This document shows, one piece after another, positions 3,980-53,593 of a stretch of DNA of 64,000 nt. Position 1 is the first letter of the stretch; each line of letters begins with the position of its first letter. The stretch comes from Escherichia coli O127:H6 str. E2348/69 (GTDB lineage Bacteria; Pseudomonadota; Gammaproteobacteria; Enterobacterales; Enterobacteriaceae), in assembly GCF_000026545.1 (NCBI RefSeq), contig NC_011601.1; one strand, written 5' to 3'. The position numbers and the translations under genes are program-made. The notes beneath the pieces are model-generated. The model saw only the letters and a program-made list of their open reading frames with translations. It did no database searches and had not been told where the DNA came from.

Positions 3980-3993
3980 TTGATTTACATCAA
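3980..3993 (+). promoter_or_regulatory. FNR binding site (TTGAT-N4-ATCAA) of the nirB promoter, about -41.5
   Basis: Perfect TTGATttacATCAA at 3980-3993; a TAAGGT -10-like hexamer about 28 bp downstream; nirB ATG at 4052. Confidence 0.85.
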
Positions 3994-42824: not shown

Positions 42825-45146
42825 ATGATGAATGATTCGTTCTGCCGCATTATTGCGGGTGAAATTCAGGCGCGCCCGGAACAGGTTGACGCTGCCGTTC
42901 GCCTGCTTGACGAAGGGAATACCGTGCCGTTTATCGCACGTTATCGTAAGGAAATCACCGGCGGTCTGGATGACACGCAGCTGCGTAATCTGGAAACGCG
43001 TCTGAGCTATCTGCGCGAGCTGGAAGAGAGACGTCAGGCGATCCTCAAGTCCATTTCCGAGCAAGGCAAACTCACCGATGATCTGGCGAATGCCATCAAC
43101 GCCACCCTAAGCAAAACCGAACTCGAAGACCTCTACCTGCCCTACAAACCTAAACGCCGCACCCGTGGGCAAATCGCCATTGAAGCAGGGCTTGAGCCGT
43201 TGGCCGATCTGCTGTGGAGCGATCCGTCACACACGCCAGAAGTCGCCGCTGCACAATATATTGATGCCGATAAAGGCGTGGCAGATACCAAAGCCGCGCT
43301 GGACGGCGCGCGCTATATCCTGATGGAACGGTTTGCCGAAGATGCCGCGCTGCTGGCGAAAGTGCGTGATTATCTGTGGAAGAACGCGCATTTGGTTTCT
43401 ACGGTGGCGAGCGGTAAAGAAGAGGAAGGGGCGAAATTCCGCGACTATTTCGATCATCACGAACCGCTGTCCACGGTGCCTTCTCACCGCGCGCTGGCGA
43501 TGTTCCGTGGTCGTAACGAAGGCATACTTCAGCTTTCGCTGAATGCCGATCCGCAGTTCGAAGAACCGCCGAAAGAGAGCTATTGCGAGCAAATCATCAT
43601 GGATCACCTTGGCCTGCGCCTGAACAATGCCCCAGCGGATAGCTGGCGCAAAGGTGTGGTGAGCTGGACGTGGCGCATCAAGGTGTTGATGCATCTGGAA
43701 ACTGAACTGATGGGCACCGTGCGCGAACGCGCGGAAGATGAAGCAATCAACGTCTTTGCCCGTAACCTGCATGATCTGCTGATGGCGGCCCCTGCCGGGC
43801 TGCGTGCAACGATGGGCCTCGATCCGGGTCTGCGTACTGGGGTAAAAGTGGCGGTAGTCGATGCAACTGGCAAACTGGTGGCGACCGATACCATTTATCC
43901 GCATACCGGGCAGGCCGCAAAAGCAGCGATGACCGTTGCTGCGCTGTGTGAAAAGCATAATGTTGAACTGGTGGCGATCGGCAACGGTACAGCTTCTCGC
44001 GAAACCGAACGTTTCTATCTCGACGTGCAGAAGCAGTTCCCGAAAGTGACCGCGCAGAAAGTGATCGTCAGCGAAGCTGGCGCGTCGGTTTACTCGGCTT
44101 CCGAGCTGGCAGCACAGGAATTCCCGGATCTCGACGTTTCGCTGCGTGGCGCGGTGTCTATCGCCCGTCGTTTGCAGGATCCGCTGGCGGAGCTGGTGAA
44201 AATCGATCCGAAATCTATCGGCGTAGGTCAGTATCAGCATGACGTCAGCCAGACGCAGCTGGCACGCAAACTGGATGCAGTAGTAGAAGACTGCGTAAAC
44301 GCCGTTGGCGTCGATCTCAACACCGCTTCTGTTCCTCTGTTAACCCGCGTGGCGGGCCTGACGCGCATGATGGCGCAAAACATCGTAGCCTGGCGCGATG
44401 AGAACGGCCAGTTCCAGAACCGTCAGCAACTGTTAAAAGTGAGCCGTCTGGGGCCGAAAGCCTTCGAGCAGTGCGCGGGTTTCTTGCGCATTAACCACGG
44501 TGATAACCCGCTGGACGCTTCTACCGTTCACCCGGAAGCCTATCCGGTGGTGGAACGCATTCTGGCAGCAACACAGCAGGCACTGAAAGATCTGATGGGT
44601 AACAGCAGCAAACTGCGTAACCTGAAAGCATCTGGCTTTACTGATGAGAAATTCGGTGTGCCGACGGTAACCGACATCATCAAAGAGCTGGAAAAACCGG
44701 GTCGCGATCCGCGTCCGGAATTTAAAACCGCTCAGTTTGCCGATGGCGTCGAGACAATGAACGACCTGCAACCGGGTATGATCCTCGAAGGTGCGGTGAC
44801 CAACGTCACCAACTTTGGCGCGTTTGTCGATATTGGCGTGCATCAGGACGGCCTGGTTCACATCTCTTCATTGTCGAACAAGTTTGTGGAAGATCCGCAT
44901 ACCGTGGTGAAAGCGGGCGACATTGTGAAGGTGAAAGTGCTGGAAGTGGATCTTCAGCGTAAACGTATCGCCCTGACCATGCGTCTGGACGAGCAGCCTG
45001 GCGAAACCAACGCCCGTCGCGGCGGCGGTAATGAACGCCCGCAAAACAACCGCCCGGCAGCCAAAACGCGTGGGCGTGAAGCGCAGCCTGCCGGTAACAG
45101 CGCGATGATGGATGCGCTGGCGGCGGCAATGGGCAAAAAACGTTAA
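42825..45146 (+). CDS. tex: Tex (YhgF), S1-domain transcription accessory protein, 773 aa
   Basis: ORF 42825..45146 (+), 773 aa; YqgF/RuvC-like and HhH domains and a C-terminal S1 domain ([21 protein letters not shown]). Confidence 0.94.
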
Positions 45147-45227
45147 ACGCCCGGACTGGCCCCTAAACCTGCGCGATTAGGCGTTCACGCCGCATCTGGC
45201 AACGAACGCCTTGCCTGACATAAAAGT

Positions 45228-45253
45228 GCCGGAGAATATCTCCGGTCTTTTTA
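45228..45253 (+). terminator. Hairpin plus T-run downstream of tex
   Basis: gccggaga-ata-tctccggtc followed by ttttt. Confidence 0.6.
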
Positions 45254-45380
45254 TTCCACAACCAAACTCATAATAGATTCCGTTAATATTTATCACTTCA
45301 TTAACAACTGAAACCTTAATTAAACATTAACCAGCCCTAATAATTCGTCATGCGAATTATATTTTCGCTGCGATATAACC

Positions 45381-45394
45381 TTGAGCCATATCAA
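45381..45394 (+). promoter_or_regulatory. FNR-like site upstream of feoA (TTGAG-N4-ATCAA)
   Basis: ttgagccatatcaa, one mismatch from the TTGAT-N4-ATCAA consensus; feoABC is known to be FNR-activated. Confidence 0.45.
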
Positions 45395-45452
45395 CATTGA
45401 GTCAGATTATTATTCAAACCAACATTCACACACATTTTAAGTATTGCTGATA

Positions 45453-45473
45453 GAAACCATTCTCATTATCATT
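45453..45473 (+). promoter_or_regulatory. Fur-box-like sequence in the feoA promoter region
   Basis: gaaaccattctcattatcatt contains the TCATTATC core of the Fur consensus (GATAATGATAATCATTATC); about 110 bp upstream of the feoA ATG. Confidence 0.45.
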
Positions 45474-45583
45474 GTACTGTTGATTATTTAATCTCTCCTT
45501 CGTTGGCAAATCATCTGGTCTCATGTCGCTGTCAAACGCCCCATGAGGTAGTTATCCAGTTAATGAGAAACAAGTAGGCACCT

Positions 45584-45811
45584 ATGCAATATACTCCAGA
45601 TACTGCGTGGAAAATTACTGGCTTTTCCCGTGAAATCAGCCCGGCATATCGCCAAAAACTGCTTTCTCTTGGCATGTTACCTGGCTCCTCTTTTAATGTG
45701 GTGCGCGTCGCTCCACTCGGCGACCCCATTCATATCGAAACCCGTCGTGTGAGCCTGGTATTACGCAAAAAAGATCTGGCCTTATTAGAAGTGGAAGCGG
45801 TTTCCTGTTAA
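45584..45811 (+). CDS. feoA: Ferrous iron transport protein A, 75 aa
   Basis: ORF 45584..45811 (+), 75 aa ([41 protein letters not shown]...). Confidence 0.95.
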
Positions 45812-53494: not shown

Positions 53495-53506
53495 TAATAC
53501 TGATAG

Positions 53507-53593
53507 CCGGATGCGGCGTGAACGCCTTATCCGGCCTACGATTCGGCATTAATTAGTAGGCCGGATAAGACGCGTCAAGCGTCGCATCCGGCA
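53507..53593. repeat. BIME: two inverted REP elements between convergent gntT and malQ
   Basis: gccggatgcggcgtgaacgccttatccggcctac (53507-53540) and taggccggataagacgcgtcaagcgtcgcatccggca (53558-53593) in opposite orientation. Confidence 0.85.

Follow-up and report, generated by a model that had tools for sequence, protein, structure and literature searches.

The stretch of DNA considered here, which we call the window, comprises 64,000 nucleotides of contig NC_011601.1 from Escherichia coli O127:H6 str. E2348/69, and our subject is the spacer within it that lies between tex (yhgF) and feoA and carries the feoABC promoter. The tex open reading frame, annotated as a Tex family protein in the E2348/69 record, occupies 42825..45146 on the plus strand with its TAA stop at 45144..45146. 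The feoA coding sequence follows at 45584..45811 on the same strand, with feoB next downstream. As tex ends at 45146 and feoA begins at 45584, the spacer (45147-45583) is 437 bp long, rather than the 436 bp given in the original prediction, a description of this DNA made from its letters. From the tex stop onwards it contains a GC-rich segment, the tex terminator, a series of regulatory sites, the feoA core promoter and the feoA leader.

A query of 521 bases spanning the spacer has matches in 5,425 of 5,426 complete E. coli genomes, with yhgF and feoA always flanking it. The K-12 spacer is 456 bp long and 95% identical. It is just downstream of the tex stop that the two spacers differ in length and that substitutions are densest. 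That Fur, FNR and ArcA control feoABC in K-12 is established by published work (including Kammler et al. 1993; Beauchene et al. 2015). The sequence matches, position weight matrix (PWM) ranks, copy numbers, K-12 orthology and cross-genus conservation given below were obtained in this work, and the data on binding and regulation come from the K-12 literature. PWM ranks and statements about best matches refer to the whole 64-kb window. Published K-12 positions were moved from U00096.2 to NC_000913.3 with an offset of +1978, verified with two published site sequences, and downstream of the indel after tex they convert as window position = 45584 - (3538185 - U00096.2 position). For comparison across genera, a degenerate feoA pattern retrieved 58 loci from Enterobacteriaceae species representatives, in 46 of which the end of tex was located upstream; Yersinia was not recovered by this pattern.

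Promoter and regulatory sites upstream of feoA

The feoA transcription start was placed at 45478 on the plus strand, with an accuracy of about 1-2 nt. In K-12 the ArcA box TTGTTAATGAAATGATAA at 3537888-3537908, among 128 published boxes, lies under a chromatin immunoprecipitation (ChIP) peak and is placed at -191 to -171 (Park 2013, Tables S1/S3/S4/S6), and these offsets put the start at U00096.2 3538079, that is at 45478 in the window, 106 nt upstream of the feoA ATG. From this published start the hexamers are probably TTGCTG (-35, 45444-49) and TATCAT (-10, 45467-72), separated by 17 nt, and the core promoter with its proximal Fur cluster spans 45444..45476 on the plus strand. The block 45444-45474 (ATTGnTGATAGAAACCATTCTCATTATCATTG), which holds the -35 hexamer, the proximal Fur array and the -10 hexamer, is the most conserved part of the spacer and is near-invariant in 25 species. 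Further conserved blocks are formed by 45290-45331, the ArcA/OmpR region, and by the FNR half-sites. Short open reading frames also occur in the spacer and overlap the promoter/Fur block, for example one of 32 amino acids at 45426-45524 on the minus strand. The regulatory sites already account for the conservation of this block.

Fur sites form two clusters. In the proximal one, three overlapping 19-mers in a 6-nt phase (45446-64, 45452-70 and 45458-76) match the Fur consensus GATAATGATAATCATTATC at 12-13 of 19 positions, and the upstream cluster at 45393..45423 has three 11/19 matches in the same phase. Both clusters are identical in sequence to those of K-12, for which information theory gave sites at 3538006 (10.5 bits) and at 3538059 and 3538065 (10.9 and 13.4 bits) (Chen 2007). 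These map to 45405 in the upstream cluster and to 45458 and 45464 in the proximal one, and together the two published clusters cover the Fur boxes of Kammler 1993. Published K-12 data also include ChIP-exo signal for Fur upstream of feoABC and a Fur-dependent feoA-lacZ fusion. The original prediction had pointed to a Fur-like AT-rich element at about 45453-45473. Its placement stands, as it coincides with the proximal sites of Chen 2007 (about 45446-45476), and the strength of its consensus match is taken up in the last section. By analogy with K-12, and given the identical sites, Fur probably controls feoABC in E2348/69 too.

The FNR site TTGAGCCATATCAA at 45381..45394 agrees with TTGAT-N4-ATCAA at nine of ten core bases and is centred about -90.5 from the transcription start. 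The pattern TTGAK-N4-ATCAA occurs twice in 64 kb against 0.26 occurrences expected by chance, and a PWM trained on 62 further ChIP-supported sites gives TTGAGCCATATCAA 15.3 bits (training median 15.6), the second rank. Its K-12 ortholog TTGAGCCACATCAA at U00096.2 3537982 differs by one spacer substitution, scores 14.6 bits and is covered by an FNR ChIP-seq peak whose deconvolved position, 3537996 (Myers 2013, Table S6), maps to 45395 in the window. The original prediction had read an FNR-like TTGAG-N4-ATCAA at precisely these positions and had named a matrix scan and a comparison with the feoA start as checks; the scan bears it out, and set against the derived start at 45478 the FNR site falls at about -90.5 and the proximal Fur array over the -35 and -10 hexamers. 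Occupancy by FNR in E2348/69 is likely, judging from the K-12 ChIP-seq ortholog and its near-identical site. Elsewhere in the window, the first-ranking FNR match is the perfect palindrome TTGATTTACATCAA at 3980-3993 and the third is GTGATCAAAATCAC at 2472-2485; their sequences are those of the nirB and ppiA/tsgA sites, respectively, in the published K-12 list.

The position of the FNR site recurs across genera. Of the 43 loci with a long leader, 39 have a TTGNN-N4-NTCAA site between 182 and 208 nt upstream of the feoA ATG, and these 39 come from Escherichia, Salmonella, Citrobacter, Kluyvera, Pluralibacter, Klebsiella and Enterobacter. The left half-site is TTGAG in 30 of them and TTGC- in nine (Klebsiella, several Kluyvera and three other lineages), with PWM scores down to 6-10 bits. 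In three loci with a short leader the FNR-type site stands 131-133 nt ahead of the ATG. The best FNR-type site of the four Cedecea-type loci, a perfect TTGATnTAAATCAA, is farther from the ATG, at about 380 nt upstream; these four loci also have an extra conserved leader insert, CAGAGCCCAGCTCTAAGTAGG, and a promoter architecture unlike that of E. coli. A centre at about -90.5 would be compatible with a class I site in a distal position, or with a site that acts against the Fur cluster next to it. A class II FNR promoter, which would start at about 45429, was rejected by inspection as it is without a usable -10 hexamer at the required spacing.

Farther upstream, the ArcA box TTGTTAATGAAGTGATAA at 45290..45307 on the minus strand is the ortholog of the K-12 box under the ArcA ChIP peak. 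It contains direct repeats of TGTTAA-like elements 11 bp apart and, with a PWM from the other 114 published boxes, scores 16.9 bits (training median 16.6) and ranks second. The best ArcA match of the window is AAGTTACATAAATGTAAA at 30929-30946 on the minus strand, with 19.4 bits. A predicted OmpR motif, ttATCAcTTCATTAACA, maps to 45290-45306 and overlaps the ArcA box. In electrophoretic mobility shift assays, OmpR shifted a larger promoter fragment that included ttATCAtttcattAACA (-294 to -278) and left unshifted a smaller fragment holding one of the two predicted motifs (Gerken 2020). Judging from the fragment layout, that single motif is probably the RstA/OmpR-like motif CCAACATTCACACACA at 45419..45434 on the plus strand, whose ACATTC...CACA core is partly conserved.

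Next to the ArcA box lies the conserved block GAAACCTTAATTAAACATTAACC (45310..45333, minus strand), whose columns are 80-100% conserved in 25 species and which extends past the published 21-bp ArcA site. Two weaker ArcA matches within it score 12.1 and 12.5 bits, at ranks 14 and 8, and so exceed the lowest training score of 10.1. With 45282-45292 the block forms an 11-nt inverted repeat (GTTAATATTTA/TAAACATTAAC). These features suggest that the block may hold additional ArcA direct repeats or a site for another factor. Between the ArcA and FNR sites, at 45339..45361, is a palindrome with perfect 8-bp arms, AATAATTCG-TCATG-CGAATTATA, which is possibly a NagC-type operator. A PWM from ten published NagC operators gives this predicted operator 20.1 bits, within the training range of 17.2-24.7 and 5.7 bits above any other match in the window, and FITBAR had predicted its K-12 ortholog at 3537939.

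All of these sites have counterparts at the same locus in K-12. The -35 and -10 hexamers, like the Fur clusters, are identical there, and the FNR, ArcA, OmpR-motif and NagC-like sites stand at the same offsets from the feoA ATG. Relative to K-12 the window has single-base changes in the FNR spacer (C to T), in the RstA-like motif (G to A) and in the ArcA/OmpR motif (T to C, or A to G on the minus strand), and two bases differ just upstream of the transcription start. Its NagC-like palindrome is more symmetric than that of K-12 (20.1 versus 19.0 bits), and its repeat region after tex is 19 bp shorter.

In Salmonella enterica the FNR site, the Fur/-10 block and an ArcA-type block lie at the same offsets as in the window. 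The Salmonella feoA promoter is activated by RstA, according to papers citing Jeon et al. (2008), and the Salmonella RstA box TACATTCCGTCACA is better than its counterpart in the window, AACATTCACACACA. Yersinia pestis feoABC resembles that of E. coli in being regulated by Fur and in having predicted FNR and ArcA motifs. It has two promoters and is repressed by Fur only under microaerobic conditions, its promoter region has no detectable DNA similarity to that of E. coli, and FNR and ArcA are without effect there (PMC5519574).

The GC-rich segment and terminator after tex

The DNA that follows the tex stop differs in composition from the rest of the spacer, with a GC fraction of 0.61 at 45140-45219 against 0.29-0.34 farther downstream. 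The original prediction had noticed this segment and a palindrome in it, and could not assign it. Both are present, the palindrome being ggcgttcacgcc at 45180-45191, and the segment can be assigned: it is a decayed copy of a repetitive extragenic palindrome (REP) of the kind arranged in bacterial interspersed mosaic elements (BIMEs). The degenerate remnant occupies 45147..45211 on the minus strand. Read on that strand, 45175-45200 is GCCAGATGCGGCGTGAACGCCTAATC, a Y-type REP core, of which 22 nt have a single mismatch to the canonical Y-REP of a BIME at 53506-53592, and a 17-mer, GATGCGGCGTGAACGCC, recurs exactly at 53510-53526. An inverted repeat, AGGCGTTC/GAACGCCT, at 45179-86 and 45204-11, adjoins the core. 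The BIME at 53506-53592, a canonical inverted pair with a short linker between two REPs that each have the end ...CTTATCCGGCCTAC, should fall between gntT and malQ, judging from the K-12 gene order, and a further REP/BIME element of the window lies at about 30182-30263.

Copy number points in the same direction. The 40-nt core 45166-45205 has a median of at least 40 matches per E. coli genome, with at least 40 in 5336 records, and the K-12 version of the core gave the same result (at least 40 places per genome). These counts were made at E <= 10 in a database of 28 Gb. In a scan against Rfam the best match on the plus strand was the REP-derived naRNA4, aligned over the REP hairpin GGCCGGauAAGGCGUUUACGCCGCauCCGGCAAcG only, and two outer pairs of the hairpin in that model are broken in the tex-feoA copy. 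The location is extragenic, between the tex stop at 45146 and the terminator stem that begins at 45228.

The copy shares with the REP/BIME elements of E. coli the core GATGCGGCGTGAACGCC, the head GCCAGATGCG, the extragenic position between stop and terminator and the high copy number. It differs from them in what it has lost: the tail half (…CTTATCnGGCCTAC) and some of the outer stem are missing, the partner REP is deleted and little of the linker is left. As the tail half is missing, it is a truncated member of the REP family. As a single partial REP is left where a BIME would have paired inverted REPs and a linker, the tex-feoA copy is a remnant and no intact BIME.

Comparison within Escherichia suggests how this state arose. 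In E. albertii and E. whittamii the tex stop is immediately followed by a complete BIME, in which a linker of about 34 nt joins a left REP to a right Y-REP. In K-12 and Escherichia sp. MOD1-EC7003 the left REP is gone except for a GGCCTACG tail, and the allele of the window has lost a further 19 bp relative to K-12, and with them the CGTAGGGCA half of the outer stem of its Y-REP. Four loci of our set and that of the window thus form a three-step series of BIME decay across Escherichia. The segment 45147-45211 would then represent one inverted Y-type REP with its outer stem partly deleted, together with the tail of a lost partner REP. Among the loci compared the Y-REP core at this site is confined to Escherichia, and in Salmonella other REP-like tails stand after tex in its place. 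By a rough coverage count, the 81-nt segment of the window is covered to at least 80% in about 3,547 of 5,425 E. coli genomes, and the K-12-like allele is present in about 1,700 when at least 99% identity is required and in about 2,240 when at least 80% coverage suffices, the latter figure taking in some matches to other BIME loci at less than 80% identity. The short, window-like allele appears to be the commoner in E. coli.

The GC content of the segment is close to that of the adjacent tex coding region (0.60-0.68), as would be seen if 45147-45227 were a relic of tex coding sequence, left by a gene that was once longer or by a recent stop. The comparison of the Tex ends leaves this idea with a negligible probability. 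Tex ends at the same codon in all 46 loci in which its end was located, from most of the sampled genera; the C-terminus reads ...AAMGKKR* in 40 of them and ends in -KKK* or has one substitution in the remaining six. The segment is not conserved outside Escherichia, and its core is a multi-copy repeat. A constant Tex end and an Escherichia-restricted segment exclude the coding relic.

The REP remnant is followed by the intrinsic terminator of tex (45220..45256, plus strand), identified by a terminator scan, by RNA folding and as an inverted repeat. The stem at 45228-45246, GCCGGAGAATATCTCCGGT, has 8 bp, five GC pairs and a 3-nt loop and is followed by CTTTTTATT, and a T-run starts at 45248; the terminator-like hairpin that the original prediction had drawn at 45228-45253 is accordingly found in the scan. 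It is present in both the minimum-energy and the centroid fold and dominates the predicted fold of the tex 3' end. With the A-tract and T-tract included, the inverted repeat extends over 45220-45254 with 16-nt arms, and the upstream A-tract gives the terminator a bidirectional look.

Such a terminator would also suit a small RNA (sRNA), either a naRNA4-like sRNA from the tex 3' untranslated region (UTR) or an antisense, STnc390-related sRNA ending at the terminator from the other side, and there are weak Rfam matches to both (naRNA4, 22.2 bits, plus strand; STnc390, 23.5 bits, minus strand, at 45214-45280). We nevertheless regard an sRNA encoded by the segment and terminator as highly unlikely. 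Both scores are far below the gathering values of 59.5 and 50 bits, the naRNA4 match is limited to the generic REP hairpin, and the match to STnc390 amounts in essence to a terminator stem of generic type, within which there is no sequence identity. No Rfam family reached its gathering score in the orthologous loci of Salmonella, Citrobacter and E. albertii, and a promoter scan gave no promoter-like site on either strand. STnc390 was therefore rejected, as was naRNA4 as a gene, the latter match serving as evidence of REP identity only.

The feoA leader

The leader of feoA extends over 106 nt (45478..45583, plus strand) and has a Shine-Dalgarno-like AAGTAGG at 45572-45578; the sequence ACAAGTAGG is conserved in nearly all genera. 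Its first 30 nt (45479-45508, GTTGATTATTTAATCTCTCCTTCGTTGGC) are conserved in sequence across most genera, which could reflect Fur contacts past the start site, at GATTAT-like hexamers, or a role at the RNA level.

Downstream of these lies a stem-loop (45519..45548, plus strand) in which UCUCAUG at 45519-25 pairs with CAUGAGG at 45542-48, with a possible outer stem of CUGG (45515-18) and CCAG (45556-59). The stem stands about 35 nt upstream of the ATG and leaves the ribosome-binding site uncovered. Its local fold has a z-score of -2.5, and the mean z for the central leader is -1.33 over 27 species. In the Escherichia/Citrobacter/Salmonella/Pluralibacter group RNAalifold gave seven pairs, three of them with compensatory changes; 95.7% of the stem cells are paired, against 33-69% with the partners slid, and none of 500 shuffles reached the covariation score. 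In Salmonella the stem has one mismatch, and at the same leader position Klebsiella, Kluyvera and Cedecea have hairpins of unrelated sequence. The stem region is absent from the short-leader loci of Escherichia sp. ESNIH1, Lelliottia sp. WAP21 and Huaxiibacter chinensis. Only a few lineage splits account for the compensatory changes, and the consensus stem energy is weak (-4.25 kcal/mol). The fold of the whole leader was no better than that of shuffles (z = +0.79), and RNAalifold gave no structure on a sequence-based alignment of 23 leaders.

These observations permit a tentative proposal, which we rate as rather improbable, that the leader contains a conserved stem-loop acting after the start of transcription, for example by affecting how stable the mRNA is or by serving as a platform on which a regulator, RNA or protein, could act. 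A lesser alternative is that the inverted repeat may function in the DNA, as an operator for a regulator such as FeoC. No title or abstract returned by a phrase search of the available literature dealt with an element in the leader of feoA, whether in E. coli or in related bacteria.

Probable regulation of feoABC and fate of the repeat in E2348/69

Collectively our data indicate, with a probability of about 0.93, that the region is the standard E. coli tex (yhgF)-feoA spacer, comprising a REP remnant, the tex terminator and the known feoABC promoter controlled by Fur, FNR and ArcA. The same regulation would be expected in E2348/69, where the sites are identical to those of K-12 or single bases apart. 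The map in the original prediction holds in each of its assignments and is extended here by the upstream Fur cluster, the ArcA/OmpR site, the NagC-like site, the core promoter, the start and the leader. Its proposal of iron- and oxygen-regulated feo expression agrees with the K-12 literature on Fur, FNR and ArcA.

Several points weigh against this reading. All of the binding and regulation data come from K-12, and the start site is indirect, derived from offsets in supplementary tables rather than from primary mapping. The promoter hexamers are under the threshold of a generic scanner, a sigma-70 scan of the spacer having found no promoter, and the -35 hexamer matches the consensus at only three of six positions; a weak -35 is expected of an activator-dependent promoter. 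With regard to the repeat, the K-12 RefSeq annotation is without any repeat features, even at the canonical BIME, and so lends the REP call no backing. Furthermore, the outer stem has two mismatches, and the minimum-energy fold uses the AGGCGTTC/GAACGCCT repeat in place of the canonical REP hairpin. The predicted fold selects this neighbouring repeat because the canonical hairpin is damaged. Lastly, the best Fur score of 13/19 is reached in 22% of composition-matched controls (P = 0.22), as the stretch is AT-rich, and only the number of Fur sites matching at 11/19 or better is mildly enriched (P = 0.03).

The last of these points, that the best Fur score is within the expectation for the local composition, would also be seen if the FNR-like and Fur-like elements were chance matches in an AT-rich promoter and feoA were here mainly under other factors, and the FNR position is unusually distal. 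We consider this very improbable. The K-12 FNR site lies under a ChIP-seq peak and the copy in the window differs from it only in the spacer, the position of the site is conserved across many genera, no part of the spacer is more conserved than the Fur/promoter block, and ChIP-exo and reporter data exist for Fur in K-12. As the sequence match is marginal, the reality of the Fur element rests on these published K-12 data and on its near-invariance across genera.

In the model of the standard spacer, transcription of feoABC would start at about 45478 from a sigma-70 promoter, TTGCTG-N17-TATCAT, with a weak -35. Fe2+-Fur would repress it through overlapping site arrays over the -35 and -10 hexamers (45446-45476) and at about -73 (about 45393-45423). 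Anaerobic activation would come from upstream, by FNR at about -90.5 and by ArcA at about -180, the latter possibly extending to 45333; in K-12, FNR and ArcA partly counteract Fur at feoABC. OmpR and possibly NagC may act as extra inputs, the OmpR-bound fragment containing the motif that overlaps the ArcA box.

REP sequences are known for stabilising mRNA and for binding gyrase, IHF or DNA polymerase I (Pol I). Since the alternative fold is favoured, an mRNA-stabilising function of the tex-feoA copy is doubtful. From what is generally known of REPs, the structure in the tex 3' UTR would be at most a weak barrier to 3'-to-5' exonucleases, and the remnant may be an inert relic in E2348/69.

The finding as a whole is real, ordinary and already known, and its significance beyond annotation is small. 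It has three useful by-products, namely a base-resolution map of K-12 sites moved to an enteropathogenic E. coli (EPEC)-type genome, the three-step BIME decay series across Escherichia, and a testable lead in the stem-loop of the feoA leader, which is the only item that is possibly new.

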